Assembly: GCA_037146675.1 (NCBI GenBank)
Contig: JBAWWR010000003.1
Span: 1-56,070 of the forward strand
Length of the DNA: 56,070 nt
Reading direction: 5' to 3'
From: Verrucomicrobiota bacterium
GTDB lineage: Bacteria > Verrucomicrobiota > Verrucomicrobiia > Palsa-1439
Both the position numbers and the translations under genes were made by a program. Of the stretch, positions 14,462-45,145 are shown in pieces; position 1 is the stretch's first letter, and each line of letters begins with the position of its first letter. A model generated the notes under the pieces. It was not told where the DNA came from. It saw nothing but the letters and a program-made list of their open reading frames with translations, and made no database searches.

Positions 14462-14466
14462 TCACG

Positions 14467-16227: not shown

Positions 16228-16233
16228 ACCATC

Positions 16234-17142: not shown

Positions 17143-17159
17143 GACCAGAAACAACGCTA

Positions 17160-17966
17160 ATGGATTTCATCAAAAAACATTTAGAGAAACTCCTGCTGGC
17201 TGGCGTGTTGCTGGTATTGATCGGCGTGGCTGGGTTGTTGGCGTGGAAAGTCGAAAAGCTTAGCGAGATTATAAATGCCGGCCTCAGTAGTCCAACCCGC
17301 AGAGTTCCGCCAAGTCCATTGCCGACCGAGGTGTACTCCAAGGCAATTGCCGGCTTCACAAACCCAATGCCTTGGCGGACCAGTATTGTGGACCCATTTC
17401 ACACTGGGATTGAGATCATCAAAACAACAACGGATAAAGGGCCTGACAAGCAACCACCCAAGCCGCCGACCCAGCCGTTTAAGATTAATGAGATCAAGCG
17501 CAAGCCGAGTAGATTCGTTTTCAAATCCTATAGCAAGCAGGGTGAAAATTTCTTTGCAATCAACGATGCAAATAGCAAGCGCACTTTCATTGTAGACAAA
17601 GCGGGCGATAAGATCTGGAATCCGATTGATAAGTACGACACCGGCTTCGTTGTGACCAAGTTCGAGAAAAAAGACAATGAGGTGGAGAACCCGCGCACAC
17701 ACGCCAAGCACCAGCAGGATGACTCTGAGTTAACCATCCAGCGCGGCGCAGAGACGCCGCTTGTTCTTCCGTTGAACCGCATTATCGAGGAACGGGAGCC
17801 GGAAGCAGTGCTCACGTGCACGGCGGACAATCAAAACCAGCCCGTTCGCAAGGGTCAATCCGTGGTGTGTGGCGGCCGAATTTACAATGTCGTTGACATC
17901 ACTTTAAGGCAAGTGTTAATCGTTGACGAACAAACAAAAGAGAAGCTAACCATCACCAATGAGTAG
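17160..17966 (+). CDS. Amuc_1099-like pilus system protein
   Basis: MDFIKKHLEKLLL N-terminal anchor, beta-rich C-terminus (KFEKK...DDSELTI); lies between Amuc_1100-like gene and secretin. Confidence 0.65.
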   Translation: MDFIKKHLEKLLLAGVLLVLIGVAGLLAWKVEKLSEIINAGLSSPTRRVPPSPLPTEVYSKAIAGFTNPMPWRTSIVDPFHTGIEIIKTTTDKGPDKQPPKPPTQPFKINEIKRKPSRFVFKSYSKQGENFFAINDANSKRTFIVDKAGDKIWNPIDKYDTGFVVTKFEKKDNEVENPRTHAKHQQDDSELTIQRGAETPLVLPLNRIIEEREPEAVLTCTADNQNQPVRKGQSVVCGGRIYNVVDITLRQVLIVDEQTKEKLTITNE

Positions 17967-18022
17967 GTAGCTTGATTGATGGAATATTGTCACGTCTGAA
18001 GAATCAAATGGAGAATTGCGTT

Positions 18023-20482
18023 ATGAAGAAAACCCTGTTGGCGATGTTGGTAACAAGCTTGCTACTCGCCCCCATTGCTCTTCGAGCTGACATCTTGGTA
18101 GCTGATGCGACGCAGAATCTTGGTGCCGGCCGTACCAATGTGAGCGCGCCGGTCGTCACTCTTATCACTACCCCGGCCGCTGCGCCGGTTAATCCTGAAG
18201 TCACACAGACCGAAAAGGAAGAAGTCCTGCGCCGGCAAGTCGCACAGATTGAGGCGCGGATATTGATTGATGTCGGTTGCCGTCTGGAAAACGCAGGCAA
18301 GCACGAAGATGCCATTCCTAAGCTCACAGAAGGCCTCAAAGTACTGCCACGCGCCAAGGCTACTGAAGCGGATTACAAAAGGGCCGTTCGCGCGTTAGGC
18401 ACCGCTCATGCAAAACTTGCCATCAATGCACTCAAGGGCGGCGACAAAAACACAGCGATTGAACAAGCCAAGAAAGCCATAGAATGCGATTCCGCCAACC
18501 GCCAAGCTGAAGCTATTATAGTCAAAGCCAAGCAGATTAAGCAGACCGCTATCGCTACTCCGCCGCCGGCGCCTGACAAAACTCCTGAATTTCTAGCTGC
18601 GCGCGAGCAAATTAAAAAATTGTTCCGGGAAGGTAAAATCCTCCTCAACTCCGGTCAGTTCGATGAAGCCGAACGGCGTTTCCAGCAAATTCTAATGCTC
18701 GACCCATACAATGCCGACGCGCAGGAAATGCTCGTAATGGTGCAAGCCGCCCGCCAGCCCAGTAATCAAGCCGGCGCGGAGGCCGCCCGCCGCAAGATGT
18801 TGTGGCAAGCCGATAGCGCATGGTTGTTGCCGACCGGCGGCGAAATCAAACGCCCAGAGCCAGAAATTACCAGCACTCGCCTAGAGAATACCGGCCTAAA
18901 TAAGGCGATCCTGCAAAAAATGAGTGAGATCAAATTTCCTGAAATCAACTTCCGCGAAGCGTCGCTTGTGGATGTGGTGACTTATTTAAGCGAACAAAGC
19001 CGCAAGCTCGATCCTAAGGGCGACGGTGTGAACATCGTACTGGGACCGGGTGTAAGCGGCGGCGCTGAAGCGACGCCGGCCCCGGCTGCCGGTGCTGACG
19101 CCCCGTCTGTTGGTGGAACAGGCGGCCGTTCCATCACCCTGCAATTGCGCAACATTCCAATGATTGACGCGCTGAAGCTAATCGTACCGCTAGCCGGATT
19201 GAAGTACCGCGTTGATAGCTATGCGGTAGTTCTGTTGCCGACTGATGCACCAGATGAAGAGATGACTACTGAAACCTATGGCGTTTCACCGGATGCATTT
19301 ACCAAGTACGCCGTTACAGCTGAAGCCGGCGGTGGTGGCGGAGCTGAGAAAATGGGCGGCGGCGCGTCGGTCACACAGGTTACAATTGACCTAAAAGCGC
19401 TCTTCAAGGATGCCGGCGTTGATTTCCCACCGGGCGCGAGCATTACCTTTAATCAAAAGACGAGCAAGATTATCATCCGCAACACACCGAAAAATATTGA
19501 AGCGTTCCTGAAGGTTCTCCCCAGCTTCGATGCCGTTCCCACGCAGGTGGAGATTGAGGCTCGGTTCATTGACATCTCGCAAAGCGATTTGGATGAACTC
19601 GGCTTTACCTGGTCATTTAGCGGGGGCAGCATTGTCGGTCAACATACGCATGCCAATCTTAATTACAACGGTCCGAACCCCAGCGGCTTGCCTGATGGTA
19701 GTATGCCAGCAGACACTAGCGGTGCGATGCGCGACAGTAGTAAACTCGGTGGTAACGCGATTGCTTCGGCGTTGTCAGGCGCGAGCTCTGCATCAGGCGG
19801 TAATCAGGTTTTCAGCCTTGGCGGCGTGTTTAACGGTGCAACGTTTAACATGATTATCAAGGCACTTTCCCAAAAACAATCTACTGATGTGTTAAACGCC
19901 CCGAAAGTCACCACGTTGAGCACTTTGGAAGCCACCATCAAGGTTGTGCAGTCGTTCATTTATCCCAGCGAATATTCCGAACCACAAACCGGCACGGGCA
20001 CCGCGATCACGCCCAGCGTTCCATCTGGTTTTAAAACCAAGGATGTGGGCGTAATCCTCCGTGTTACCCCAACGGTAAGCGCTGACAAGAACACGATTGA
20101 CTTGATGCTGACACCGGAAGTTACCGAGTTCCTTGGTTTTATTGACTACGGTCCCGGCCCAGTTACATTTGTTACCACCAATGGTACCGAGACTGTGCCA
20201 TTCAAAATTCAGCAACCGCTCTTTTCTGAGCGTAGCGTTTCTACCCGTGTGGTTGTGTGGGATGGCCAGACCGTCGTGCTCGGTGGCCTGATTAAGGAAA
20301 ACGTCCAGAAGATTGATGACAAAGTTCCATTTCTCGGCGATCTGCCGGGTATCGGTCGGTTATTTCGCAGCAAAGTCACCAATCGCAGCAAGCAAAACTT
20401 GCTGATCTTTGTGTCGGCGCGGCTAATTGGTCCCGACGGCAGTCCGATTCACAAAGAAGTTACCCGCGGCGGTCTCCGATAA
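18023..20482 (+). CDS. Outer membrane secretin with N-terminal TPRs (Amuc_1098/PilQ/GspD family)
   Basis: QVEIEARFIDI, APKVTT, VGVILRVTP, VLGGLI and DKVPFLGDLPGIGRLFRS motifs. Confidence 0.92.
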   Translation: MKKTLLAMLVTSLLLAPIALRADILVADATQNLGAGRTNVSAPVVTLITTPAAAPVNPEVTQTEKEEVLRRQVAQIEARILIDVGCRLENAGKHEDAIPKLTEGLKVLPRAKATEADYKRAVRALGTAHAKLAINALKGGDKNTAIEQAKKAIECDSANRQAEAIIVKAKQIKQTAIATPPPAPDKTPEFLAAREQIKKLFREGKILLNSGQFDEAERRFQQILMLDPYNADAQEMLVMVQAARQPSNQAGAEAARRKMLWQADSAWLLPTGGEIKRPEPEITSTRLENTGLNKAILQKMSEIKFPEINFREASLVDVVTYLSEQSRKLDPKGDGVNIVLGPGVSGGAEATPAPAAGADAPSVGGTGGRSITLQLRNIPMIDALKLIVPLAGLKYRVDSYAVVLLPTDAPDEEMTTETYGVSPDAFTKYAVTAEAGGGGGAEKMGGGASVTQVTIDLKALFKDAGVDFPPGASITFNQKTSKIIIRNTPKNIEAFLKVLPSFDAVPTQVEIEARFIDISQSDLDELGFTWSFSGGSIVGQHTHANLNYNGPNPSGLPDGSMPADTSGAMRDSSKLGGNAIASALSGASSASGGNQVFSLGGVFNGATFNMIIKALSQKQSTDVLNAPKVTTLSTLEATIKVVQSFIYPSEYSEPQTGTGTAITPSVPSGFKTKDVGVILRVTPTVSADKNTIDLMLTPEVTEFLGFIDYGPGPVTFVTTNGTETVPFKIQQPLFSERSVSTRVVVWDGQTVVLGGLIKENVQKIDDKVPFLGDLPGIGRLFRSKVTNRSKQNLLIFVSARLIGPDGSPIHKEVTRGGLR

Positions 20483-22144: not shown

Positions 22145-25100
22145 ATGGCAAAACAACCGAATGATATTTCTCCGGCTCCACAGCCGGTTGCAGCGGCTGA
22201 AACGCGCCGGGTGTTCACGCCTGTGGAATGGCTCGTGGCCGGGCTGGCATTCGTGGTGTCGGGGTTGGTTTATTTTTACTACATGTCGCCAGAAGTGACA
22301 TTGGAAGATTCTGGCGAGCTGGTAACCGGCGCATTCAATTTTGGCGTGCCACATCCGCCGGGTTATCCGCTGTGGGCGTTCATGGGTTGGCTCTGGCGCT
22401 ATCTGGTGCCGTTTGGTAATCCGGCTTGGCGCATCTGTTTGATGTCGGTGCTGACCGGCGCAACGTTGGTCGGAATCATGACGCTATTGATGTCGCGCAG
22501 TATTTTGATGCTACTGCGGAATGTGACTTGGGCGGACAAGATCGAGGAATCGTTAAAGAGTTGGTTGTCGCTGACGATCGGTGTGGCGGCGGCAATGCTG
22601 TTTGCCTTCAATCGTGGCGTCTGGCTCTGGGCGTGCGTGCCGGAGATGCGCGTGTTGAATGCGTTTCTGTTCGTGCTGATCAGCTGTATGTTTTTCGCGT
22701 GGATGATGCGGCCGGAGAAGAGCCGGTATTTGTACGCCACACTGCTTTTGCTGGGGTTGAGCATCGCGAACCACCAGACGATCGTGGTCATGGCGTTTCC
22801 GTTTTTGGTGGGCGCATTTGCAGTTGGCTGGCTGGCGGAACACAAGCCGGGGTACTTGTCCGGCTTTTTGGAGCTGACGTTCGCGCTGTTGGTGGGCTGG
22901 GCGGCCGGCGTGCTGGTCAATGCTTGGCTGTTGGCGCCGACGGCCGATTTGCTCTGGATGCAAAAAGTCCGGGTCGGAATTTTATTTGGACCACCGACCG
23001 AAGCCTTGCCGGTGCTACTGGTGAGCGGCGGCGCGGCCGCGGCATTGTTGGTGTTGGGCGCGTCGGCGCGGTGGCTGAACTGGCGGCGGGCGGTGTGCGG
23101 CGCTGGTTTGTTCCTACTAGGCTGCGGCATGTACGCATACATGCCGTTGGCAGCGGCAACGAATCCGCCGATGAACTGGGGTTACTGCGCGACCAAACAA
23201 GGCTTCCTCCATGCAATCACGCGCGGTCAGTATGAGCAATTGCACACGTCGCCAATCCTGAGTTTCGCGTTCTTGACGCAAATCCGGTTATTCACGGAAG
23301 CGTTGATCAATCAGTACAGTTGGCCGGTGGCGCTGTTTGCTCTCCTCCCGATGGTCTTATTAGTTTGTCGCTGGAATGACTTGCGGATGCGCGGCCGGCA
23401 ATGGCTGATCTACGTGTTTGCTGCCATAGCGACCACGAGTTTTGGGTTGTTGATGATCATCAATCCCGGCCTCGATAAGACCCAGCAAGAAATCAACATG
23501 AAGTTCTTTGCGCCAGCTCACGGGTTCTTCGCCATGCTGATTGGCTACGGCATCGCGCTGGCAATAACGTGGGCACTGGCGCGCTGGCCGCAACTGCCCC
23601 GGTCGGTATTCCGGTATGGCAGTCTTGGATTGGTTGCGCTAGCGATCATTCCCTTCACCGGTAACTGGAAAACGTGCGAACAACGCGGCCATGATTTTGG
23701 GTATCAATTCGGTTACCGGATGTTTTATCCCGGTGGCGATTATCCGCCAATGGACCGGGATGCGTTTTTGTTTGGCGGTACCGATCCCGGCCGCTTTGTG
23801 CCGACGTACATGATTTTCTCCGAAAGCGTCGTGCCGGCCCGTGATAAATTCCGCGACCCGAATCTACAAAACCAAGAACTGAACTTTGACCGTCGCGACG
23901 TGTACATCGTCACGCAAAACGCATTGGCCGACACAACCTACATGGCGTACATCCGCGATCATTACGACTACTCGCGGCCGACCAACTACAACGCGTTCGC
24001 GCGGGCCATCGGCCGGGCGCAAGCTTATCCCGTCGCGCCGATTTGGATTCCAACGGAACTGGATTCGCAGCGCGCGTTTCAGGAATACGTCGCCGATGTG
24101 CAAAGCCGGCGCGCGCGTGGCGAACCACAGAATCCCGACGAGGACGTCACGCTGGAGGGCGGCCGGGTGCAGGTGCGCGGCGTCAAGGGCGTGATGAACA
24201 TCAACGCCATCCTGTGTAAATGGATTCACGATCATAACAAGGCCAAACACACCTTCTATGTCGAGGAAAGCTACGTGATTGATTGGATGTTCCAATATCT
24301 CGAGCCCTACGGCATCATCATGAAGATCAATGCTGAGCCGTTACCGTCGCCCAGTGACAACCCGGTGTTGTGGTCGCGAATCTTCGAGCGCGACAAGGCG
24401 TATTGGGACAAGCTCGTGGCGGAGTTCACGGCGCGGCCGGAATTCTGGCGCGACAATGACGCGCGCAAAACGTTTTCCAAACTACGCTCGGCCATCGGCG
24501 GTGTGTATGCTTACCGGAAGCTTTATGACAAAGCCCAGTATGCTTATCAGCAATCGCTGCAACTTTGTCCCGACAGCCCTGAAGCCAATTTCCGCACTTC
24601 ACAACTGTATCTGGAAACCGGCCATCCCGACGCCGCCATCGCCATTCTGGAAGCGTATAAGAAGCTTGATCCGCTCAACAGCAAGATCGAATTGGCGATC
24701 AACCAGATTCGCGGCATGCAACAAGCAGGTGCCAGCATCCAACAGCTCGAGCAGCAACTCGCCACGCAACCGCATAACCTCCAGCTTGTTGGTGAGCTCG
24801 CTAAAAACTATCTGCGCGTGCAACAGTTTGGCCGCGTTCAGGCGCTGTTTGACAACTTCGTCGCCCAACCTGCTACCACTGTCGGTGATATGCTCCAAAT
24901 TGCTCAGTTTTACCTGAGCATCAATCAAGCGCAACTGGCTGTCCGCGCCATCGAACAGGCGACGCAACGGTTCCCACAGGAGGCCGATCCATTCTACGCG
25001 CTCGCCATCCTTCGCGGCGCAATGGGCGCACCAAATGACGCGTTGGGCGCATTGCAGCGCGCGATTCAAATCAACCCGGCCGTCCGTGCTCGCGCTCAGA

Positions 25101-25165
25101 GCGATCAGCAGTTCGCGGCGCTACGGAATGATGCGCGTTTCCAAGCGTTGGTGGCCAGCCAGTAG
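22145..25165 (+). CDS. DUF2723/TMEM260-like GT-C membrane glycosyltransferase with C-terminal TPRs
   Basis: EDSGEL...GVPHPPGYPLW motif, multiple TM helices, PPMNWG, TPR tail. Confidence 0.82.
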   Translation: MAKQPNDISPAPQPVAAAETRRVFTPVEWLVAGLAFVVSGLVYFYYMSPEVTLEDSGELVTGAFNFGVPHPPGYPLWAFMGWLWRYLVPFGNPAWRICLMSVLTGATLVGIMTLLMSRSILMLLRNVTWADKIEESLKSWLSLTIGVAAAMLFAFNRGVWLWACVPEMRVLNAFLFVLISCMFFAWMMRPEKSRYLYATLLLLGLSIANHQTIVVMAFPFLVGAFAVGWLAEHKPGYLSGFLELTFALLVGWAAGVLVNAWLLAPTADLLWMQKVRVGILFGPPTEALPVLLVSGGAAAALLVLGASARWLNWRRAVCGAGLFLLGCGMYAYMPLAAATNPPMNWGYCATKQGFLHAITRGQYEQLHTSPILSFAFLTQIRLFTEALINQYSWPVALFALLPMVLLVCRWNDLRMRGRQWLIYVFAAIATTSFGLLMIINPGLDKTQQEINMKFFAPAHGFFAMLIGYGIALAITWALARWPQLPRSVFRYGSLGLVALAIIPFTGNWKTCEQRGHDFGYQFGYRMFYPGGDYPPMDRDAFLFGGTDPGRFVPTYMIFSESVVPARDKFRDPNLQNQELNFDRRDVYIVTQNALADTTYMAYIRDHYDYSRPTNYNAFARAIGRAQAYPVAPIWIPTELDSQRAFQEYVADVQSRRARGEPQNPDEDVTLEGGRVQVRGVKGVMNINAILCKWIHDHNKAKHTFYVEESYVIDWMFQYLEPYGIIMKINAEPLPSPSDNPVLWSRIFERDKAYWDKLVAEFTARPEFWRDNDARKTFSKLRSAIGGVYAYRKLYDKAQYAYQQSLQLCPDSPEANFRTSQLYLETGHPDAAIAILEAYKKLDPLNSKIELAINQIRGMQQAGASIQQLEQQLATQPHNLQLVGELAKNYLRVQQFGRVQALFDNFVAQPATTVGDMLQIAQFYLSINQAQLAVRAIEQATQRFPQEADPFYALAILRGAMGAPNDALGALQRAIQINPAVRARAQSDQQFAALRNDARFQALVASQ

Positions 25166-26294: not shown

Positions 26295-27761
26295 TCAGTC
26301 CACTGTTAACACGATGTTATTCTTGCTCAGAATCGTGCCTTCGACTTGATCAAGCGTGACGAGCGATTCTCCGTAATCGGTTCGGGCCCGGATTTCGGCA
26401 GAGCGGGTGGTCGCCAATTGGGCTTGGGCTTGGAGGACAAGGAAGGTCGTCGAGGTGCCGGCTAATAGTTTCTTTTTCTCGGCCGCGAGCGATTCTTGGG
26501 CAAGGCGCGTGGCTTCGTGCGCGGCCGCAACGCTTTTCAGATTCGCTTCAACGTGGCCGACGGCGTTGTCGACTTGAATGATGATGTCTTGTTCGATGGC
26601 TTTGAGGTTCAAGAGGAGTTGGTCAGCGTCAAGCCGGGCAATCCGGTAAGTCGAGCGCGCTTGCCGGTTGCCGAGTGGAAATGAGACGGCCACACCGACG
26701 CCCCAGACCGGGCTGTTGCCGGTCGTCAGGTTGTCGGTGTAACCGCTAAAACTATGGCCGTAGCCATTCAAGCCATAGCTACCTTGCAAATCAACCTCTG
26801 GCCAGAGTTGGTTGCGGTTGAATTTAACAACAATGTTTTGTTTCTCTAAAGTCTCTTTGGCGCTGAGGTAATCGGGGCGCCGCGTCAATGCCGTCCGCGT
26901 GCTCTCGTCGACGTCGGTTTGGATCATCTGCACCAGTGGGTAGTCGACCGGCAACAAAGTCGTGCCGCGAAACTCCGAGACTTCCCGGCAGATCAGCCGC
27001 TTGAGTGTGTTCTCGTTGTCCTTAATCTTGCGCGCGGCCAGAATAACGGCCTGTTCGCGCTCGGCCACACCGGCTTCGGCTTGGGTCACATCGAGCGGCG
27101 TTAGGACGCCAACTTGGACGCGGCGCCGGTCTTCTGTTAGTAATTCTTTGGCCCGGTTGAGATCTTCGACTTTGGCTTTGTGATCCTCGATGGCGAAACC
27201 TAATTCGTAATACGCCGAACAGACCGTAGTCATTTTTGTCATGACCAGCTGGATGAAGTTCTGGACAGCGATTGCTTTGGATTTGCGGGCGATGCGGATG
27301 TTGGCGGAATTGATACCCAGCCCGAAATTTTTCAGCAACGGCTGGGTCACGCTCACACCGGCTTGACCGGTGTAGAGAAAATTGTAGTTCGTGATGGCAT
27401 TACCGGAGGTGCGATAGTCGTGAGCAGTGAAATCGTAGGTCGCGCCGGTCGGCAACTTGCCGGCCAGGCTCAACGTGGGTTGCATCGTCTGTTGTGTCAG
27501 AGCTGGAAAGACCGGATCGAGTGGACTTGTTGAATCTTGGTAAGTTAGCGCGCTGGTCAGCACCGGATCGTAGACGCCTTGCGCGCCAATAATTCCCCAC
27601 GTTTGAATGCCGGGATTGATGCGCTCGGCGCGGATTTCGAGGTTGTTGACCAATGCGCGTTCCACGCATTCACGCAAGGCCAAGGACTTCACGCTGGTTT
27701 CACTACGCGCCGGGCTGCTGCACAGGATTGCCGACACGAGGACGAGAGAGATTTTATTCAT
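26295..27761 (-). CDS. TolC family outer membrane efflux protein
   Basis: Signal peptide, two OEP repeats (VTQPLLKNFG; VSFPLGNRQAR). Confidence 0.9.
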   Translation of the reverse strand: MNKISLVLVSAILCSSPARSETSVKSLALRECVERALVNNLEIRAERINPGIQTWGIIGAQGVYDPVLTSALTYQDSTSPLDPVFPALTQQTMQPTLSLAGKLPTGATYDFTAHDYRTSGNAITNYNFLYTGQAGVSVTQPLLKNFGLGINSANIRIARKSKAIAVQNFIQLVMTKMTTVCSAYYELGFAIEDHKAKVEDLNRAKELLTEDRRRVQVGVLTPLDVTQAEAGVAEREQAVILAARKIKDNENTLKRLICREVSEFRGTTLLPVDYPLVQMIQTDVDESTRTALTRRPDYLSAKETLEKQNIVVKFNRNQLWPEVDLQGSYGLNGYGHSFSGYTDNLTTGNSPVWGVGVAVSFPLGNRQARSTYRIARLDADQLLLNLKAIEQDIIIQVDNAVGHVEANLKSVAAAHEATRLAQESLAAEKKKLLAGTSTTFLVLQAQAQLATTRSAEIRARTDYGESLVTLDQVEGTILSKNNIVLTVD

Positions 27762-28971
27762 AACGAAGCGCTTCAATGGGATCTAGTTGGGAGGCCTTGC
27801 GCGCCGGATAGAAGCCAAAGAAGACGCCGACCGCCGCGCTGAACAAAAACGCTACCACCACTGCCGGCACTGAGATCAGTGTCGGCCAGCCAGCTACTGC
27901 GGACAAGACTTTGGCGGTGCCCAGCCCGATGGCGATACCGAGGATGCCGCCCAGTGAGCTGAGCGTGATGGCTTCAATTAGAAATTGCAGCAGGATGTCG
28001 TGGCCGCGCGCGCCGACCGCCATGCGAATACCGATTTCACGGGTGCGCTCGGTGACGCTGACGAGCATGATGTTCATGATGCCAATGCCGCCGACCATCA
28101 GCGACACGCAGGCGATTGCGAATAGGAGCACCCGCATGATTTTTGAGGTGGCCGTTGCCATCTCAGCGATTTCCTGCTGGTTGCGGACGGTGAAATCATC
28201 ATCTTTGCCGGGCACGATGTGGTGGTGTTCGCGCAATATCGCTTCGATCTGGCGTTGCACCGGCACGAGCATCTCCACCGACTCCGCCTGCACGTTGATG
28301 GCGCGGAGCGTGGTCTGCCGCAGCAAGCGTTTCATCACGCTGGTGTACGGCGCAATGATGACATCGTCTTGATCGGTGCCCATTACCGACAGACCCTTCG
28401 GCGTCAATACGCCAACGACAACAAATGGAACTTGCCGGACGCGGATGACTTGACCGACTGGATCGTCGTCGCCAAAAAGTTGCGCGGCTATTGTTTTGCC
28501 GATGATGGCCACCTTGTTGGCGCTGCGCACATCTTGGTCGGTGAATACCGCACCGGTTGCCAGTGGCCACTCGCGAATTGAAAAGTATTCCGGTGACTCG
28601 CCGATAACCGTCGTATACCAGTTCTGATTGCCGGCACCAATCTGGGCGCCGACACGCGTTTCCGGGCTAACAGCCACAACACCGGGAATCTCGCGCGCGA
28701 TGCTGCGGAAATCGTCCAATGTGAGTGTGCCGGCGCTGCCCCAGCCACCGCGCACGCCGCCACTGCTGCTGTTGCCGGCCCACACGATGATTAAATTCTG
28801 GCCGAGGCTGGCGATTTGCGCTTCGACTTGCGCCTTCGCGCCGTTGCCCACACCAACCATCGCAATCACCGCGCCGACGCCAATAATAATACCGAGCGCG
28901 GTCAGCGTCGAGCGCAGTTTGTTGCGGCGCAACGCGCGCAGAGCGATTCGCAATGTGGCCAGAAATCTCAT
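27754..28971 (-). CDS. MacB-family ABC permease
   Basis: RSTLTALGIIIGV, GGIGIMNIMLVSVTERTREIGIR and LDPIEALRYE motifs. Confidence 0.93.
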   Translation of the reverse strand: MRFLATLRIALRALRRNKLRSTLTALGIIIGVGAVIAMVGVGNGAKAQVEAQIASLGQNLIIVWAGNSSSGGVRGGWGSAGTLTLDDFRSIAREIPGVVAVSPETRVGAQIGAGNQNWYTTVIGESPEYFSIREWPLATGAVFTDQDVRSANKVAIIGKTIAAQLFGDDDPVGQVIRVRQVPFVVVGVLTPKGLSVMGTDQDDVIIAPYTSVMKRLLRQTTLRAINVQAESVEMLVPVQRQIEAILREHHHIVPGKDDDFTVRNQQEIAEMATATSKIMRVLLFAIACVSLMVGGIGIMNIMLVSVTERTREIGIRMAVGARGHDILLQFLIEAITLSSLGGILGIAIGLGTAKVLSAVAGWPTLISVPAVVVAFLFSAAVGVFFGFYPARKASQLDPIEALRYE

Positions 28972-29729
28972 GCGGTCAATTGAATCGCCTGATGTTGGTG
29001 GTCGAGCTTCCGGAGCTCGTCTTGTGCAATCAACCGGTGCGCGACCGGCGTATCGCTAACGACGAGGCCATCGCGCATGACGACGCTGCGTTTGGTGTAC
29101 TGCGCAATATCGAGTTCGTGTGTGACCATTACAATCGTAATGCCGGCATCATTTAATTTCTGGAAAACACCCATGACTTCGACACTGGTGCGGGTGTCGA
29201 GGTTGCCGGTCGGTTCGTCGGCGAGCAATAGCTTCGGATCGTTCACCAAGGCGCGGGCAATGGCGACGCGTTGCTGTTGACCGCCGGAAAGTTGGCTTGG
29301 ATGATGATCGGCTCGGTCAGCCAAGCCGACGATTCGCAGGGCGTGTGTGGCGCGTTCGGCGGCTGTGTGCGACGCGATCCGTTGCCGGCTGTAAAGCAGT
29401 GGTAGCTCGACATTTTCCAGCGCCGAGGTGCGGGCGAGCAGGTTGAAGCCTTGGAAGACAAATCCAATTTTTTGGTTACGAATGTCGGCTAATTGTTCGC
29501 GTTCCAACTTGGACGCGTCGACGCCATCAAGCAGATACTGTCCGCCTGTGGGTCGGTCGAGACAACCGAGAATATTCATCAGCGTGGACTTACCGGAACC
29601 GCTGGCACCCATGATGGCGACAAACTCGCCGGTCTGAATTTCCAGCGTCACGCCACGGACGGCATGCACATCCACCTCGCCGGTATGGTAGGTTTTGTGG
29701 ACGTCCACAAATTGAATGACGGCGCTCAT
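28968..29729 (-). CDS. MacB/LolD-type ABC ATP-binding protein
   Basis: GASGSGKS, LSGGQQQR and ADEPTGNLD motifs. Confidence 0.95.
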   Translation of the reverse strand: MSAVIQFVDVHKTYHTGEVDVHAVRGVTLEIQTGEFVAIMGASGSGKSTLMNILGCLDRPTGGQYLLDGVDASKLEREQLADIRNQKIGFVFQGFNLLARTSALENVELPLLYSRQRIASHTAAERATHALRIVGLADRADHHPSQLSGGQQQRVAIARALVNDPKLLLADEPTGNLDTRTSVEVMGVFQKLNDAGITIVMVTHELDIAQYTKRSVVMRDGLVVSDTPVAHRLIAQDELRKLDHQHQAIQLTA

Positions 29730-29730
29730 C

Positions 29731-30927
29731 TTACCGGAAGCGCATGCCACCACCGGCGAGCGGGTTGCTTGTCTGCGTGCCAGCTTTGTAAATTGCGCTA
29801 GTGATAACCTGATTGCTCTCGCTTAACCCCTCGGTCACTTCGGTGTATATACCATCGCTGATACCGATTTTGATTTTAACCGGCGTGGGTTTGCCGTCCA
29901 GCGTGTACACGGTGCGGGCAAAGCGGCGCTCACTTTTGTCGCGTTTACCGGCGGCGCTGTTAGCGATTGGCGGAACGGCGTTGGTGGCGGTTTCAGCAGG
30001 CCGGAACCGCAGCGCCGCGTTCGGAACGCTGAGAGCGTTGTCGAGTTGGGCAATGATGATGGAGACGTTGGCGGTCATGCCGGGCTTGAGCTTCATGTCT
30101 GGATTGTCTACGGCGATGACGGTGTCGTAGGTCACGACGTTCTGGACGGTGAGCGGAGCATTGCGGACTTGAACAACTTTGCCGTGAAACGTCCGGTACG
30201 AAAACGCGTCGACAGTAAAATCCACGTCCTGACCAACGACAATGCCGCCAATATCTGCCTCCGCGACATTGGAATCGATCTGCATCTTGGTTAAGTCGTT
30301 GGCAATGGTGAACAACGTCGGCGCGCTGAGGCTGGCGGCGACGGTCTGGCCGACCTCTACATTGCGGGAGATCACGATTCCGTTAACTGGTGAGCGGATT
30401 GTGCAATGGAGTAAATCTACCTGGACTCGCGCCAATGTTGCTTGGCGATTTTGCAGCACAGCTTCGGCTTGATGCAGGCTGGCAACGGCGGTGTCGAAGT
30501 CGGATTGTGGAATGAGCTTGCCGGCGAGTAATTCCTGCGCGCGCTTGGCGTTGATCTGGGTGAGTTCGAGCGCCGCGCGGGCATTGGCGACATCGGCGGC
30601 GGCGAGCTTGACGTTGGCGTCGTAGATGAGGGGTTCGATTTCAGCAACGATCTGGCCATTTGTGACCGGCGAATTGAAATCCACCGGCAACTTCGCAATC
30701 GTCCCGGAAATCTGGCAGCCAACGGTGACATTGGTGACCGGATTGAGGGTGCCGGTTGCTGTGATGGTCTGGATCATTTCCCGGCGCGTCACGGTGGCGG
30801 TTTGGTATTGGGTGCCGTCATGATTCTGCCGGTGCCACCACCAGCCAATGCCGGCTCCAACCAGCGCCAGCAGGGCGACAATTAAAATCCATTTCCAACT
30901 ACGGCTCACATTTTTAGGCACGTTCAA
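29731..30927 (-). CDS. MacA-type periplasmic adaptor subunit
   Basis: TGTLNPVTNVTVG, IRSPVNG, GQTVAASL and LKPGMTA motifs. Confidence 0.92.
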   Translation of the reverse strand: MNVPKNVSRSWKWILIVALLALVGAGIGWWWHRQNHDGTQYQTATVTRREMIQTITATGTLNPVTNVTVGCQISGTIAKLPVDFNSPVTNGQIVAEIEPLIYDANVKLAAADVANARAALELTQINAKRAQELLAGKLIPQSDFDTAVASLHQAEAVLQNRQATLARVQVDLLHCTIRSPVNGIVISRNVEVGQTVAASLSAPTLFTIANDLTKMQIDSNVAEADIGGIVVGQDVDFTVDAFSYRTFHGKVVQVRNAPLTVQNVVTYDTVIAVDNPDMKLKPGMTANVSIIIAQLDNALSVPNAALRFRPAETATNAVPPIANSAAGKRDKSERRFARTVYTLDGKPTPVKIKIGISDGIYTEVTEGLSESNQVITSAIYKAGTQTSNPLAGGGMRFR

Positions 30928-31520
30928 TTTCTCCGATCAACGGGGGTGATGACAACGCTAACTTGATTAAACCCGATTGTCTGTAAAAAGTTGCGGATAA
31001 TCGTTTCCGCGTTTTGCTGGGCGTTACTGAGAATACCCATCTGCACTGCCGCCTGCCGCACATCTTCCAGAGCGGCCCGGCGCGCGCTTTGTTCTAGGTC
31101 GGGATTAAGTCTGACCCACGGCGTCCACCACGTTTTACTGCGGTCCCAGACTTTCGTTTCCGTGTCATCGAGCGACACGTCAATGATGCTGGCTGGCGGC
31201 AACCGGATCAACACCGCCTTGCCGGTTTGACTGGCCGTGGCGCTGGCGAGATTGACGCCACCCAGGACTTTGGCTTGCACGAGCATCAGCACCTGCTCGT
31301 TGCCGAACGGGACTTTCTGCTCTTTCAGGCCGATGACTTTCTGGATGTTGTAGCGAACGGTGACCAAATCATTGAGCAGTTGGATTTGCCGGAGAATTGC
31401 CGGCGCCGCAACGGTTGTTTGACTGGTCGGCTGTTGCGGAAAATACCTGTAATACACCGCCAGCCCGGCGAGGCCGATAATGACGGCCGAGACAAAATAG
31501 AATTTAATGGCGCGCCACAT
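30924..31520 (-). CDS. DUF4230-like membrane-anchored protein
   Basis: N-terminal TM; LVTVRY...AKVLGGVNL...GILSNAQQNAE pattern. Confidence 0.7.
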   Translation of the reverse strand: MWRAIKFYFVSAVIIGLAGLAVYYRYFPQQPTSQTTVAAPAILRQIQLLNDLVTVRYNIQKVIGLKEQKVPFGNEQVLMLVQAKVLGGVNLASATASQTGKAVLIRLPPASIIDVSLDDTETKVWDRSKTWWTPWVRLNPDLEQSARRAALEDVRQAAVQMGILSNAQQNAETIIRNFLQTIGFNQVSVVITPVDRRN

Positions 31521-31523
31521 TGG

Positions 31524-32027
31524 TCACCAATCCCGCTGCCGGAACGAAACAAACTGCCCTTTGCCAACCGGCTGGGTATACGGTCGCTGGCTTTTGACGG
31601 TGACGAAATGCTGTTGCCCGATTTTTAGCGCAATCAACCCAGCCAGCGCCTCATCGGTGACCATGAACCCCAATACTTCACGCTCGATGACGCCCTGCGC
31701 CGGGATGCGAATCGTGCCCAGCGTCGTCGGCTCATAGTAATCTTTCTCGTGAGCCAGTAGAACAAACCATTCGCGTTTCAAAATCACCTCATACGGATTC
31801 GGATTTTTCAACCGCAACGACACAATCACCATGCAGCTGGCGTCCACGCGGTCAACGGCGGTTTCGAGCAGTTGGACAATGTAATTTGTGCCGCCGTATG
31901 TGTGAACTTGGCTCGGTTGCGAAAACGCCTGCGCATCCCGCAAGCGCAACCACGCCAGCGTGCTGAGACTGATGACGTTGACGAGGACAATTGCGCCGAT
32001 GACAATCTTCAGCCATTTATTCTTCAT
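31524..32027 (-). CDS. Membrane-anchored hypothetical protein, DUF4352-like Ig fold
   Basis: ATG 32027 gives MKNKWLKIVIG plus a TM helix and a beta-rich domain (VSLRLKNPNPYEV...FVL). Confidence 0.55.
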   Translation of the reverse strand: MKNKWLKIVIGAIVLVNVISLSTLAWLRLRDAQAFSQPSQVHTYGGTNYIVQLLETAVDRVDASCMVIVSLRLKNPNPYEVILKREWFVLLAHEKDYYEPTTLGTIRIPAQGVIEREVLGFMVTDEALAGLIALKIGQQHFVTVKSQRPYTQPVGKGQFVSFRQRDW

Positions 32028-32127
32028 GGCTGTTCCACCGCGCTGGTCCGCGTCCCGACCGCAAACGTCGCTACAAGTTTCATTGCCGGCAATTATAGCC
32101 GTTTTTGCCACGGCGCAATAGCAATTC

Positions 32128-33645
32128 TTAAGCCACGTTCCGGTCGGCAACCGGCGAATATCGATAAACTTCATCGAGCGGCGTCGTGCCGGCTGCGGCT
32201 TTCGCGATGCCGTCAGCACAGATGGTGATCATGCCGTCTTTGATTGCCAAAGCGTGCAACTCATCCACACGTGCACCCCGGCGCAATGCGGCTCCAACTG
32301 CCGGCGTGACTTCGAGCATTTCAGTAAGCGTTGTGCGACCCCGGTAACCAGTTTGCCCGCACTTGGCGCAGCCGACGGACTTGCGGAACTTGTGTGGCAA
32401 GGTCGTCCAGTCCAAGCCACCTTCCTGAGCTAGTTTCTGCGCTTGGGCCAATTGACTTCGGGTCGGTTCCGCCGCAACACTGCATTCTCGGCATAGCACC
32501 CGAACTAAACGCTGGGCGACCACCAACTTGGCGGTATCGGCAACCAAGAACGGCGCTAAGCCAATGTCCATGATTCGCGTCAACGCGCTTGCGGCGCTAC
32601 TGGTATGAAGCGTGGTCAGGACCAGATGGCCGGTCAGTGCCGCTTGCACGGCAACCTGCAATGAGTCGAGGTCGCGCATTTCTCCAATCATGATCACATC
32701 GGGATCGCTTCGTAGAAATGACCGCATGACACGGGCAAAGGTCAGACCAACGTTCTGATTGACCGGCACCTGCGTCACCCCCGGCAATAAATATTCCACC
32801 GGATCTTCGACGCTCATGACTTTCACGCCGGGCTTGATCACTTCCTGGAGACAGGCGTAAAGCGTGGTTGTCTTGCCGGAGCCCGTCGGACCAGTACAGA
32901 AGACGATGCCATTTGGGGTCTGTAGATGCCGCCGTAGTGTCGTCCGGTGCTGCGCCGAATACGGCAACTGGTCGAGAGTGCGTTGGGCTTCCCCCTGCCG
33001 CAAGAACCGGGCCGTCAGGTTTTCTCCAAGGACGGTGGGGATAATGCAAACTCGCAGATCCAGCCGTGAGTCGTCCAAATCCAGAACAATGCGGCCGTCT
33101 TGCGGTACGTCCTTTACGTTCACATCGCAGTGGCCCAGTTGTTTCCATTGCTCGATGAGCGCCGGCAATAGCCGCACATCGGCGGTCACCGCCGTGTGTA
33201 ACACGCCGTCCACCCGGTACCGCAAATGGAGTTGGGAAATCTGGCCGTCGGTTTGCGATTCGAGATGGAAATCAGTGGCGCGCATTGCCGATCCGAGCCG
33301 AATCATCAGGTTTACGGCCTGAGCTACCGGCTCGCCGGCATTCACCCCATTCTGTTTTCCGCCGACCGCCGCCAGCTTAGCTGTAAGCGCATCAATCAGC
33401 GGATGAATATCAGCCACCAATTCGATGCGCGGCTGCTGGCCTTTAACGAATCGTTCCACATCGGTCCGGTAAAACCGCCATTGCCGACCGGCTTTCATAC
33501 CTTTAATCTTGCCGGCGCGCAGCCAGCGATAGAACGTTGGCCGGGTGGTTTTCAGCAGTGCAATTGCCTGCTCCATATCGAGTAATTCTTCAGCTACGAC
33601 CGCTGCTTGAGGGTTGGCGAGAGCCTTTTTTTGTTTCATGACCAT
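32128..33645 (-). CDS. GspE/PilB-family ATPase with N-terminal excisionase-like HTH (HTH_17)
   Basis: N-terminal LLDMEQAIALLKTTRPTFYRWLRAGKIKGMKAGRQWRF; then RYRVDGVL, GPTGSGKTT, EDPVEY, DPDVIMIGEMRD, TGHLVLTTLH and two CxxC. The AGGAG spacing favours ATG 33639. Confidence 0.9.
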   Translation of the reverse strand: MVMKQKKALANPQAAVVAEELLDMEQAIALLKTTRPTFYRWLRAGKIKGMKAGRQWRFYRTDVERFVKGQQPRIELVADIHPLIDALTAKLAAVGGKQNGVNAGEPVAQAVNLMIRLGSAMRATDFHLESQTDGQISQLHLRYRVDGVLHTAVTADVRLLPALIEQWKQLGHCDVNVKDVPQDGRIVLDLDDSRLDLRVCIIPTVLGENLTARFLRQGEAQRTLDQLPYSAQHRTTLRRHLQTPNGIVFCTGPTGSGKTTTLYACLQEVIKPGVKVMSVEDPVEYLLPGVTQVPVNQNVGLTFARVMRSFLRSDPDVIMIGEMRDLDSLQVAVQAALTGHLVLTTLHTSSAASALTRIMDIGLAPFLVADTAKLVVAQRLVRVLCRECSVAAEPTRSQLAQAQKLAQEGGLDWTTLPHKFRKSVGCAKCGQTGYRGRTTLTEMLEVTPAVGAALRRGARVDELHALAIKDGMITICADGIAKAAAGTTPLDEVYRYSPVADRNVA

Positions 33646-33723
33646 TAGCTCCTTTATGGTCGTGATATATCATAGTGCTTATGAATTACAATGATAATTG
33701 TCAGCGACTACTGAAACACCGCG

Positions 33724-34425
33724 TCAAATCAACCCCAGCTCCTTCAAGCTCACGAAGTCCTGTTCGCGTCCGGCGCTGCGTCGGCCGAGGATGATATGGT
33801 CGTGAACGGCGATGCCGAGTATCTCGCCGGCCTTAACCAAGCGCCGTGTGATTGTAATGTCTTCGTTGCTCGGTGTCGGGTCTCCACTTGGATGGTTGTG
33901 AACGAGAATCATGCCGGCAGCAGATGCCGTGATGGCGTCCTTGAAAACCTCGCGCGGCTCGACAACACTGGCGTTCAACGAACCTCGTGAGACCGGACAG
34001 CTTTTGAGGAGCGCGTTTTTAGTGTTGAGCAGCAGGACGTGAAATTCTTCCCGGTCGAGCAACCTAAAATCTTCCCGGACACAGGCCGCTGCCTCTGCCG
34101 GTGTGGTGATGATGCGCATTGCCGACCGGGAATATTCCGCCAACCGGCGGGCCAACTCAAACGCCGCCTTCAATTGAATCGCCTTCGTCTCGCCGACGCC
34201 TTTGGTTTTCGCAAGCGCTTCGAGCGGGGCGCCGGCGAGTTGGTCGAGTGCGCCGAACTGCCGGATCAATTCTTGCGCCAACTGAATCGCCGACACGCCT
34301 TTCGTCCCAGTGCGTAGCAGAATCGCCACCAACTCCGCCTCGGTCAACGCCAGCGGCCCGCGCTTTTTGAGCCGTTCGCGCGGACGTTCATCTTCCGGCA
34401 TCTCGCGGATGAGATAACTGCGCAT
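33724..34425 (-). CDS. radC: RadC family protein
   Basis: ERPRERL, HhH motif and HNHPSGDPTPSNED JAB motif; full-length form. Confidence 0.93.
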   Translation of the reverse strand: MRSYLIREMPEDERPRERLKKRGPLALTEAELVAILLRTGTKGVSAIQLAQELIRQFGALDQLAGAPLEALAKTKGVGETKAIQLKAAFELARRLAEYSRSAMRIITTPAEAAACVREDFRLLDREEFHVLLLNTKNALLKSCPVSRGSLNASVVEPREVFKDAITASAAGMILVHNHPSGDPTPSNEDITITRRLVKAGEILGIAVHDHIILGRRSAGREQDFVSLKELGLI

Positions 34426-43448: not shown

Positions 43449-44168
43449 TTACAGCGGAAACGCTTCATTAAGCCAGCGCAGCGCGTCAAAGTAAAGCTCA
43501 TCCAAGGGACGGACGCTTGCGCAATACTGCGTGTGATTCGGCGACTGCGGGTTGTCGAAACAAGGATTCGTCGTGCGTTCGGCGGAAGTAGCCTTCGGTA
43601 ATAATTTGCGGAATTGTTCGACGTCTTTATCGAGCTGTGGGTCTTCTTTAGATTTGTACTTCTTGCATATGTAAACCCGCGTCGTGTAGCTCTCTAGAAT
43701 TCTTCTAGCCGCCTTCGAATCCGTACAGGAAACACCGAGTTCCGATTTCTTGCCGCTGCAAGTATCAGCGTCTTCAGTTACGCAGACATATTTCATATTG
43801 GAGCTTGTGCGGATCGCTAATCCCCAGAAAGCGACTTCAGTATGCCGAGCGTGGAACGAGACCTTACAGCTAATGATACCTAGTACACGCCACTTGGTGT
43901 CGTCCTTGTAAATAACATACAAATCTGTATCAGGATAATCTTTTATCTGATTCTGGTCGCAAGGACGTTTAACCGGCAATGTGCTGTATTCAATAATCTG
44001 ATCAACTAAGCCAGCGTCCTGCAAAACGCGACTCAGTTCCTTGCGGCTGCCTTTGATGACGAAAATCTTATGCTCGTTAAGTAACGGGTTAAGAATTCGC
44101 GCCACAACCGACTCCAGATTGTTTCCAGCTTGCGTTCGTGCAGCCTGCGCGATCCGGTTGTCAGTCAT
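43449..44168 (-). CDS. Putative type II restriction endonuclease, BsaWI-like PD-(D/E)XK family
   Basis: AGNNLE, YPDTD and IISCKVS motifs; AT-richer; ATGA-coupled to the methyltransferase. Confidence 0.65.
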   Translation of the reverse strand: MTDNRIAQAARTQAGNNLESVVARILNPLLNEHKIFVIKGSRKELSRVLQDAGLVDQIIEYSTLPVKRPCDQNQIKDYPDTDLYVIYKDDTKWRVLGIISCKVSFHARHTEVAFWGLAIRTSSNMKYVCVTEDADTCSGKKSELGVSCTDSKAARRILESYTTRVYICKKYKSKEDPQLDKDVEQFRKLLPKATSAERTTNPCFDNPQSPNHTQYCASVRPLDELYFDALRWLNEAFPL

Positions 44169-45145
44169 TTCTGTTTGGCCTTTTTGCGAATCGTGTACGT
44201 CGTTTTGCTATCTGCCATTATTGTTGATATCGGTATGCTTTTAGATTTTTCGACCTGTATCTCGGCGAGATGCATTTGCTTAAGTTCAGCGGTAACACGC
44301 TCAGCGGATATGGCGCAATATCTTTTAGAGAGGTCTAGGTGGACGTAATGCCTGCCGGTCCGGGCGGCGACGGTGGCCACGGTGCCGGTACCTCCGAATG
44401 GATCTAGAATGACGTTGCCACGGTAGCTGTAAAATTTTATGAGTCGGTATATGAGTTCTTCTGGAAATGGAGCTGGATGCCCTTCTTCTTTTTGTTCTGG
44501 TGCTTTACGGCCGTGTTTCGGCGGGTATAGACTTTTCAAAAATGGTTGCCGGCCGCGCGTCTCAGGCGAAATCCGCCAGAAGGCATCGGAAAATTTGATG
44601 AATTCTTCACTGGTTATGTCGGCGTCGGCTTTGTTGCCTTCTAGCGTCCACGAACCCTTCGAGAAGACGAGGACGTATTCCCAACTCGGTAGCACGTGCG
44701 GATTGCGCGGGCTCTTCCATGAACCCCATGCGGTCCGGCGGCGAATGGTTTGTTTGTACCAGAGAATTTCGGTACGCATGATGAAACCGAGTTTTTTCAA
44801 GTCTCGCGTCATATCATAGTGGACTGGTTTGAAATCCTTGATACTAGTCGGGGCTATGTTGAGAGCAAATCGACCTCCCGGTGCCAGCACGCGGTAAAGC
44901 TCACTCCAGAATTTCGTAAGCCATTGCAAATACTCATCATAAGGCATCTTGTCATTATGGGAGTCGTACTGAAGGCCGACATTGTACGGTGGAGACGTAA
45001 TGGCTAAATGGACGGATTCTGCTGGCATGGCTTGCAAGATCGCGTGGGAATCGCCACATATGATCTGGTCCTTCCACCAGTCACTGGTAGTAGTCGGTGG
45101 TGGAAAATTCAGGATACTTAACTGCGGTTGGACGGAGCTTGGCAT
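44165..45145 (-). CDS. Beta-class N4-cytosine/N6-adenine DNA methyltransferase
   Basis: TSPPY (motif IV) precedes HPAPFP and LDPFGGTGT (motif I). Confidence 0.93.
   Translation of the reverse strand: MPSSVQPQLSILNFPPPTTTSDWWKDQIICGDSHAILQAMPAESVHLAITSPPYNVGLQYDSHNDKMPYDEYLQWLTKFWSELYRVLAPGGRFALNIAPTSIKDFKPVHYDMTRDLKKLGFIMRTEILWYKQTIRRRTAWGSWKSPRNPHVLPSWEYVLVFSKGSWTLEGNKADADITSEEFIKFSDAFWRISPETRGRQPFLKSLYPPKHGRKAPEQKEEGHPAPFPEELIYRLIKFYSYRGNVILDPFGGTGTVATVAARTGRHYVHLDLSKRYCAISAERVTAELKQMHLAEIQVEKSKSIPISTIMADSKTTYTIRKKAKQK

Follow-up and report, generated by a model that had tools for sequence, protein, structure and literature searches.

An HTH_17-fused GspE/PilB-type ATPase family of Verrucomicrobiota and relatives, with a candidate operator in its own promoter

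Architecture and predicted fold of the HTH_17-ATPase

The DNA analysed here (the window, 56,070 bp) comprises positions 1 to 56,070 of contig JBAWWR010000003.1 in the Verrucomicrobiota bacterium assembly GCA_037146675.1, and the element in question is a gene on its minus strand (32128..33645, stop codon 32128-32130) encoding a 505 amino-acid (aa) protein, in which a helix-turn-helix (HTH) domain of the HTH_17 family precedes an assembly ATPase of the GspE/PilB type. Met3 (33639) is probably the true start, because the ribosome-binding sequence AAAGGAG (33649..33655) sits 9 nt ahead of it and other gene callers begin there; the database twin of the protein (P0002) is 503 aa long, and the ESM Atlas record also begins at residue 3. 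The same Shine-Dalgarno sequence was present in 30 of 61 upstream regions of the family described below.

From its N-terminus, the protein consists of a tail (residues 1-20, 33586..33645; this and all following features of the gene and its promoter lie on the minus strand), a winged helix of the HTH_17 or BldC-excisionase type (residues 21-70, 33436..33585), a conserved linker (QPRIEL, residues 70-76) followed by a helix (residues 81-93) leading from the HTH to the N2 domain (33334..33435), an N2 domain of the GspE/PilB type (residues 105-230, 32956..33333), and a C-terminal RecA-like ATPase domain (residues 231-505, 32131..32955). The winged helix was assigned by domain matches, fold, conservation and alignment to the DNA contacts of BldC, and it includes a recognition helix (residues 35-43) with invariant R40 and W41 and a wing (G53-F58, GRQWRF). 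The N2 domain was identified by Pfam together with sequence and structure matches, and the ATPase domain by its motifs and by matches to GspE (4pht), PilB (5tsh, 5zfr) and PilF (5oiu). The ATPase domain contains Walker A (32869-32892), Walker B with the catalytic glutamate (32674-32700) and the tetracysteine motif (32359-32493).

Both parts of the fusion were recognised well above the thresholds of their models: Pfam HTH_17 (PF12728) at residues 21-70 with 47.4 bits (cut-off 27, E 2.3e-12), TIGR01764 ‘excise’ with 41.6 bits (cut-off 28.8), and Pfam T2SSE (PF00437) at residues 105-495 with 337.2 bits (gathering score 24.9). No Pfam match to T2SSE_N/MshEN or GSPE_N1E was found at E≤0.1 in the 505-aa protein, and in sequence search residues 1-104 aligned to no GspE or PilB chain of the Protein Data Bank (PDB). 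Thus, the N1/MshEN docking domain is replaced by HTH_17 in an otherwise intact GspE/PilB-type ATPase, as had been proposed in a preliminary description of the gene, which placed the winged helix at about residues 18-70. Canonical paralogues carry 123–400 additional N-terminal residues (175–200 in most of the full-length ones) and score about 523–742 bits on the better of the two NCBIfam equivalog models for GspE and PilB; the fused protein remained below both cut-offs, with 393.3 bits against 630.25 for GspE (TIGR02533) and 371.3 against 675.65 for PilB (TIGR02538).

For family-wide comparison, 84 loci were aligned, i.e. the window, three loci from genomes, and 80 loci from metagenomes, the latter being the best 80 of 164 confirmed among 598 candidate stretches. 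The catalytic motifs, listed as intact in the preliminary description, were all present and close to invariant in these members: Walker A (GPTGSGKT, 252-259), the Asp box (EDPVE, 280-284), Walker B (DVIMIGEMR, 316-324, with E322), the His box (338-348), and cysteines C385, C388, C426 and C429. Residues K258, E280, P282, E284, E322, G339 and all four cysteines were kept in 84/84 members and H347 in 83/84. Linker residues P72, L76, P82 and L83 were kept in at least 90% of the members, with L87 invariant. The mean majority-residue fraction was highest in the HTH (0.84), followed by the ATPase domain (0.70), N2 (0.62), the linker (0.54) and the tail (0.31); the poorly conserved tail is nevertheless basic family-wide, with a median length of 33.5 aa and a median net charge of +5.

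The AlphaFold2 model obtained with the 84-sequence alignment had a mean predicted local distance difference test (pLDDT) score of 93.2 and a predicted template modelling (TM) score of 0.86. It comprises the winged helix in β-α-α-β-β-α order (strand 21-23, helices 24-31 and 35-43, two-strand wing 50-59, helix 60-67; pLDDT about 90–96), a well-ordered linker with helix 81-93 (pLDDT 88–97), and then N2 (pLDDT about 95) and the ATPase domain, the tail being modelled at pLDDT 52–58. The core superposed on PilB (5tsh, 5zfr), GspE (4pht, 1p9w) and PilF (5oiu) with 35–39% identity and target-normalised TM scores of 0.91–0.94, and sequence scores against PDB chains were nearly equal for GspE (277 bits) and PilB (273 bits). 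When the N-terminal 92 residues were modelled alone (pLDDT 85), the best Foldseek match was the BldC-DNA complex 6ama, with a target-normalised TM score of 0.76–0.78 and a root-mean-square deviation of 1.8 Å over 53–56 columns, followed by RdfS excisionase (8dgl), Pukovnik Xis (4j2n), RacA and TraN. With a domain of only about 50 residues, the Foldseek E-values were, as expected, weak (0.017 and above).

Promoter motif of the family and its candidate reader

In the 400 nt preceding the HTH coding sequence, the 7-mer TATCATA/TATGATA occurred in 49 of the 61 dereplicated upstream regions, against at most 30 for the best 7-mer of random regions of the same length; of 161 intergenic regions that precede other genes of these loci, 6 contained it. 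Gapless alignment of the regions gave a 44-nt motif of about 36 bits, tCtTgACa-TATCATAA-tgat-TATGATA-TAT-TATGAt, which reads as a near-consensus sigma-70 promoter with an extended -10 element (TTGACA, 17-nt spacer, TGn, TATAtT; TATAnT). Three TATSATA repeats are superimposed on this promoter: R1 directly follows the -35 element, R2 lies 12 bp further on, and R3 is located 10 bp after R2, between the -10 element and the expected transcript start. R1 and R2 form the perfect palindrome TATCATA-N5-TATGATA, and R1 and R3, neither of which is a promoter element, carry about 1.0–1.5 bits per position.

At a threshold of 19.6 bits, a position weight matrix (PWM) of the 44-nt motif found a site in the 450 nt preceding the HTH in 75 of the 84 loci. 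Among the 12 held-out loci, 10 scored, and in an eleventh, L184, a 48.5-bit site was displaced by 2.3 kb through an inserted open reading frame (ORF). This ORF (L184:7716-9932, plus strand) encodes a 738-aa protein with an adenylate/guanylate-cyclase domain, an AAA_16/STAND ATPase and tetratricopeptide (TPR) repeats; it stands between the operator-promoter and the HTH-ATPase gene, overlaps the ATPase start, and is apparently co-transcribed with it under the same predicted operator.

The motif was confined to the gene in every search made with it at full length. None of the 161 other intergenic regions exceeded 12 bits (maximum 5.7), all 134 matches above 15 bits in 830 kb of loci were focal promoters, the displaced site of L184 included, and on both strands of the window's own 2.65-Mb genome (G000) the sole matches above 14 bits were the two strands of the 33651-33703 site. 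Sub-matrices for R1-R3 and R1-R2 found no second site in that genome, and the exact palindrome TATSATA-N5-TATSATA was confined to the focal promoter in the related genomes G002 and G004. Allowing two mismatches gave counts equal or close to those of the controls in each of the five genomes scanned; this bears on the composite site and not on single half-sites. A single one-mismatch palindrome was found outside the focal promoters of these five genomes, at G002:C50:4529-4547 (TGTCATAACCTATATCATA). A wider regulon was accordingly set aside, as the full PWM, the sub-matrices and the exact repeat patterns gave no second composite site in G000. Because neighbouring genes vary across the dereplicated loci while the promoter motif stays, the motif belongs to the gene. 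No known RNA leader was recognised in 31400-34000, where no Rfam family matched at E≤1.

The window copy of the promoter/operator module (33651..33694) scored 38.7 bits against the family motif. Its -35 equivalent is ATTGTA (33687-33692) and its -10 equivalent TATATC (33664-33669); R1 reads ATTCATA (33680-33686), R2 reads TATGATA and holds the TGn of the extended -10 (33668-33674), and a degenerate R3 reads CACGAC (33659-33664). An additional TATCAT (33691-33696) lies 11 bp upstream of R1. A generic promoter scan reported TTATCA-17-TATGAT at 33697..33669, shifted 5 nt upstream relative to the family alignment, which sets the register given here.

The HTH domain of the protein itself may bind the TATSATA repeats of its own promoter. 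It is the likely reader of the motif because the motif moves with this gene through unrelated contexts, and no other gene does so. The 26-aa HTH core, TTRPTFYRWLRxGKIKGMKVGRQWRF, is nearly fixed although whole proteins are 50–60% identical, with at most seven differences from this typed consensus at any locus, and the nearly fixed core thus matches a nearly fixed DNA target. In profile alignment, T37, Y39, R40, W41 and R43 fell on T27, T29, R30, W31 and K33 of BldC, and Q55, W56 and R57 on H46, R47 and R48. T37, R40, W41 and R57 were invariant in 84/84 members, and the aligned contact residues were invariant or kept in at least 90%. According to excerpts of the BldC study (PMC5859096), the corresponding BldC residues anchor on phosphates and insert a basic wing into the AT-rich minor groove, Arg30 recognises a guanine, and Trp31 kinks the DNA. 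The TAT-G/C-ATA repeat, with a central G/C and AT-rich flanks, is what contacts of the BldC type would need, and the HTH domain has 12 Lys/Arg in 50 residues and a net charge of +8. The ‘DNA-binding’ part of the name given to the gene in the preliminary description hence gains independent, comparative support.

Distribution, phylogeny and gene neighbourhood

Of the 120 best-scoring relatives (out of 8000 scored), 119 had both Pfam domains, the exception being an N-terminally short entry of 401 aa. The fusion is therefore not an assembly artefact, and the possibility that it was unique to one assembly, left open in the preliminary description, no longer holds. Source names of the relatives include Verrucomicrobiae, Planctomycetota, Phycisphaerae and Lentisphaerae, and their product names are generic (‘ATPase, T2SS/T4P/T4SS family’, ‘excisionase family DNA binding protein’, ‘PilB’, ‘GspE’, ‘TadA’). 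The 10 clusters checked for a cultured host contained names of metagenome-assembled genomes only. In the ESM Atlas, three clusters of 61–64 members were auto-named HTH/T2SSE, with Planctomycetota as the commonest phylum. When 1.84 billion representatives at 50% identity were searched with a profile of the N-terminal 92 residues, 47 reached E≤1e-30 and 355 reached E≤1e-10. Stand-alone versions or other fusions of this particular HTH were looked for among the short matches and discarded, all 5 of 5 inspected being truncated or frameshifted copies of the same gene.

The same profile search also returned proteins with 3–7 tandem HTH_17 domains (P0235 of 479 aa, P0266, P0244 and P0215). Related HTH_17 domains (E 4e-10 to 5e-9) were seen in 725–801-aa frames of other genomes of the phylum, at G352:C71:18284-18463, G249:C29:26254-26421 and G417:C36:438-590, which represent other HTH_17 fusions.

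The fused gene is patchy within its own lineage. Full-length orthologues were found in 4 of 31 related genomes (G000, the genome of the window, together with G002, G004 and G005), that of G004 being 55% identical despite belonging to the same genus, and in 2 of 401 genomes sampled from the phylum (G000 and G277). None was found in 401 genomes of the set around G426, the contig of which is labelled Planctomycetia; this set has genome sizes of 0.7–2.7 Mb, is probably not typical of Planctomycetota, and is uninformative for that phylum.

In a quick maximum-likelihood tree of N2 and ATPase domains, 54 fused proteins were separated from 30 sampled canonical N1-bearing proteins by a branch of length 0.87 with full support in the Shimodaira-Hasegawa-like approximate likelihood ratio test (SH-aLRT 100). 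The tree is effectively unrooted because the two PilT outgroup rows were very long and unstable. The canonical comparison set consisted of 80 loci from a whole-protein contig scan, which matched via the Walker B peptide only from residue 59 or later, mostly from 106. The window's own genome encodes three canonical GspE/PilB-type ATPases of 569–572 aa, three PilT-like ATPases and three platform (T2SSF) genes (on contigs C147, C13 and C28), which makes the fused gene an ‘extra’ assembly-type ATPase, the fourth.

A phage or defence origin was considered and rejected. None of 102 candidate stretches in viral contigs was confirmed as a relative, and among the PADLOC anti-phage models only mad1 (HTH, 28.8 bits) and a P-loop fragment of mad8 matched, i.e. 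generic HTH and P-loop matches. Matches in PHROGs were one unannotated T2SSE family and excisionase HTHs. The fusion was not found described in the full texts searched, namely the main texts of papers outside subscription journals; in the portions of this literature that were covered, papers pairing T2SSE with HTH concern the MshEN domain that binds cyclic di-GMP (c-di-GMP), and papers naming both PilB and excisionase treat PilB and phage excisionases separately. The HTH_17-ATPase family is thus real and conserved, and uncharacterised as far as this literature extends.

In the window, the gene has radC upstream, and downstream a 231-aa ORF without Pfam match, DUF4230, and an efflux set of the MacA/MacB/TolC type; no pilin, PilC or PilM gene adjoins it. 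The focal gene was marked by the ORF caller in 72 of the 84 loci, which formed 62 groups at 90% identity, and among these 62 dereplicated loci no conserved neighbour was found. The gene accordingly stands alone in the family as it does in the window, where the preliminary description had already noted the lack of an adjacent pilin or PilC. The radC...MacA context occurs only in the closest clade, L111-L118 (N-terminal region 80–84% identical), and is absent from more distant loci. In the more distant loci the neighbours differ and are often on the opposite strand on both flanks. Recurring neighbour families were generic (sulfatase, extracytoplasmic function (ECF) sigma factor, GH123, alpha/beta-hydrolase, TruA, MttB), none being a pilus or secretion partner, and the search for a conserved partner gene was closed on this basis. 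No competence or conjugation genes recurred near the family loci. Only two of the 62 dereplicated loci, L157 and L168, lie near pilus or secretion genes, with three T2SSE ORFs and T2SSF one gene away, about 1–5 kb downstream.

The preliminary description offered the gene as an ‘undescribed system’. This overstates the case, because it is a one-gene module, i.e. a self-contained gene with its own promoter and candidate operator, and not a multi-gene system. The domain-architecture search with neighbourhood and phylogeny that had been suggested there identified a conserved family on a separate branch with no conserved neighbour.

Several other features of the window and of the closest clade were recorded. 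A type IV pilus-like pilM...secretin cluster lies 12 kb away on the opposite strand (13853-20482, plus strand); it comprises a 202-aa ORF, a 586-aa PilM (PilM_2 with an extension; 14467-16227), two ORFs of 302 and 268 aa without Pfam match that are possibly PilO/PilP-like, and an 836-aa secretin with TPR repeats, and no ATPase or platform gene adjoins it. Neither this cluster nor any of the three platform genes is linked to the fused gene. The efflux set downstream of the ATPase (26295-31520, minus strand) consists of DUF4230, an HlyD/MacA-like adaptor, an ATP-binding cassette (ABC) ATPase, a MacB-type permease and an OEP/TolC-like protein. Between the ATPase and MacA in L111-L118, one to four small genes vary by locus (clusters 11, 13, 16, 18, 19, 74, 80 and 81), which suggests that this interval is a small variable hotspot. 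Further away in the window, a BsaWI-like type II restriction endonuclease (239 aa) stands beside an N4/N6 DNA methylase (326 aa) at 43449-45145 (minus strand), the pair being probably a restriction-modification system, and the gene at 22145-25165 (plus strand) encodes 1006 aa that combine a TMEM260-like O-mannosyltransferase domain with TPR repeats at the C-terminus.

Candidate autoregulation and its alternatives

On balance, we lean towards the reading that the gene encodes a self-contained, self-repressing motor of the GspE/PilB class with a DNA-binding head. By analogy with BldC, the HTH domains of the motor protein would bind R1-R3 in two ways: Arg40 and Trp41 of the recognition helix would enter the major groove where the central G/C lies, and the basic GRQWR wing would reach into the AT-rich minor groove. 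Bound protein would then block RNA polymerase, giving negative autoregulation. Such a block is to be expected from the position of the repeats, which occupy the spacer and the -10/+1 region of an intrinsically strong promoter with an optimal 17-bp spacer, and autoregulation is supported rather than broader control because no wider regulon was detected. Of the regulatory role proposed in the preliminary description, the part that stood is hence a DNA-binding regulator of its own synthesis, to which the own-promoter motif in 75/84 loci, its uniqueness in the genome and the retained BldC contacts all point; a regulator acting on other genes did not gain in the same way. Less firmly, the ATPase core may form hexamers like those of PilB and GspE and act on a type IV filament or type II secretion platform whose genes lie elsewhere. 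More tentatively still, the nucleotide state, hexamer assembly or membrane docking might compete with operator binding, so that free motor would shut off its own synthesis.

A number of observations weigh against this reading. The operator interpretation relies on a transcript start that is predicted from the promoter sequence, near 33657 in the window and about 7 nt after the -10. The link between HTH and motif is one of association, and changes in the HTH core did not covary with motif score (Spearman rho -0.04, p 0.76, n 73). Part of the information in the motif is ordinary promoter signal (-35, TGn, -10); R2 is partly accounted for by the extended -10 element, and only R1 and R3 are unexplained by the promoter. 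Most of the loci scored by the PWM had also served to train it, the held-out set being limited to the 12 loci mentioned above, and 9 of the 84 loci had no scoring site within 450 nt. Of these nine, L110 belongs to an operon, 3 nt after a SulP gene; flanks are short at L146, L148 and L174; shifted variants can be made out by eye at L125 and L165; no recognisable motif site stands upstream at L145 and L158; and L184 is the locus with the displaced site. The window copy itself is degraded, with R1 at 5/7 positions, R3 at 3/6, and a weak -35 element. Finally, no sign was seen that the protein still serves a pilus or secretion machine: its neighbourhood encodes no partner, and the genome has as many canonical ATPases as platform genes, three of each.

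The last point would suit a dedicated transcription factor, in which the GspE-like core acts solely as an ATP-sensing oligomerisation engine, like the AAA+ domain of enhancer-binding proteins, and the targets extend beyond the gene itself. The stronger conservation of the HTH than of the ATPase, and the lack of a platform, pilin or PilM partner in 60 of the 62 dereplicated loci, fit the same idea. It is nonetheless unlikely in view of the searches for targets, which yielded no second composite site in the own genome and no exact palindrome elsewhere in G002 and G004; a regulator of itself only needs another activity, and the full catalytic set and zinc tetracysteine of assembly ATPases are invariant throughout the family. 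The family might instead be an ordinary extra PilB/GspE motor that re-uses HTH_17 as a protein-docking module, for example for PilM or GspL, in which case the motif would be a strong promoter under another regulator. N1, which normally docks on GspL/PilM (title of PDB entry 4pht), is exactly the part replaced, and both the coincidence of R2 with the extended -10 and the missing HTH-motif covariation are as this explanation would have them. We regard it as quite unlikely, however, because the residues that contact DNA in BldC are kept and invariant in a domain of strong positive charge, and because R1 and R3 hold their information outside the promoter elements. A foreign regulator would moreover need to accompany the gene without being a conserved neighbour, and further sites for it should exist in the genome, of which none was found.

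The preliminary description also raised a coupling role, in which the motor would link DNA to the type IV machine for uptake, export or tethering of the chromosome; the HTH would then hold the DNA. A DNA-binding domain on a hexameric-type motor and the adjacent radC in the window speak for it, as does the fact that some members of the secretion-ATPase superfamily act on DNA; the model of the archaeal branch-migration ATPase PINA gave a weak match (E 2.4e-5). The HTH is nevertheless of the sequence-specific type, the radC adjacency is restricted to the closest clade, and neither recurring competence or conjugation genes nor members in viral contigs were found. This explanation gained nothing here, because no specific site other than the gene's own promoter was found, and we consider it very improbable.

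The self-repressing motor finds partial counterparts in several known systems. Like the assembly ATPases GspE, PilB and PilF, it has the N2 and C-terminal ATPase domains with all motifs and the zinc tetracysteine, but these ATPases carry N1/MshEN where HTH_17 is found here, and the fused proteins differ further in their equivalog scores below cut-off, the long separating branch, and the lack of linked platform, pilin or PilM genes. That a core of the GspE/PilB type can work without N1 is exemplified by ComGA, the ATPase of the competence pseudopilus, which sits in the comG operon with platform and pilins and, unlike the fused protein, has no HTH. The NCBIfam ComGA model matched residues 116-382 with 198.8 bits, below its cut-off of 300. 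With BldC and the excisionases (6ama, 6amk, 8dgl, 4j2n) the protein shares the small winged helix, the Arg-Trp pair and the basic wing, and the candidate sites are AT-rich repeats 10–12 bp apart with a central G/C, comparable to the AT-rich minor groove and one recognised G of BldC repeats as far as the excerpts describe them. BldC itself, at 68 residues, stands alone and binds direct repeats in head-to-tail arrangement at numerous promoters (PMC5859096). In the present family, by contrast, the winged helix heads a motor of about 430 aa, the R1/R2 pair is inverted instead of direct, and each genome has a single locus with the motif.

In its regulatory logic, the proposed device resembles the type Ia ParA proteins (P1 ParA, F SopA), which likewise are ATPases with an N-terminal DNA-binding domain that repress their own promoter. 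The nucleotide state of ParA switches it between repressor and partition roles, and the same logic of self-repression is followed by BirA and PutA. ParA is a dimeric Walker-type ATPase and not a hexameric secretion ATPase; it is thus unrelated to the ATPase described here and has a partner, ParB, and a centromere, so that the analogy is one of logic only and not of membership. Autoregulation of the par operon in type Ia systems is reported to be mainly via ParA (bioRxiv 10.1101/2021.05.10.443373). Classical MerR regulators possess a related HTH and a dyad operator, comparable to R1/R2, which is centred in the spacer between -35 and -10, but in the fused protein the HTH is followed by the linker and N2, without a coiled-coil dimerisation helix or effector domain, and the promoter spacer is 17 bp. 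MerR operators sit in the -35/-10 spacer, and activation of the MerR type needs a spacer of 19–20 bp. Repression is therefore likelier here than activation by DNA twisting, because the spacer has the optimal 17 bp and not 19–20 bp.

As a further step, the protein could be a two-state device, in which the winged helices clamp the three promoter repeats in one nucleotide or assembly state and the same face docks on a membrane platform in the other; this elaboration is possible but rather doubtful. If true, it would read motor demand directly as transcription, a GspE/PilB motor having arrived independently at the logic of type Ia ParA, and the protein would be the first secretion-family ATPase with demonstrated sequence-specific DNA binding and a compact one-gene homeostat that moves between genomes of the Planctomycetota-Verrucomicrobiota-Chlamydiota (PVC) group together with its own promoter.

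The autoregulation idea lends itself to direct testing, since the predicted operator can be given base by base and the protein's domains have clear borders. The family flags a fourth, uncharacterised ATPase of the assembly type in Verrucomicrobiota, Planctomycetota and Lentisphaerota, the pili and secretion systems of which have barely been studied. GspE/PilB motors have been studied as membrane-docked engines, whose N-terminal domains read GspL/PilM or c-di-GMP. A DNA-binding fold in place of N1 in a widespread PVC lineage would represent a new form of motor control, i.e. direct feedback by the motor protein itself.

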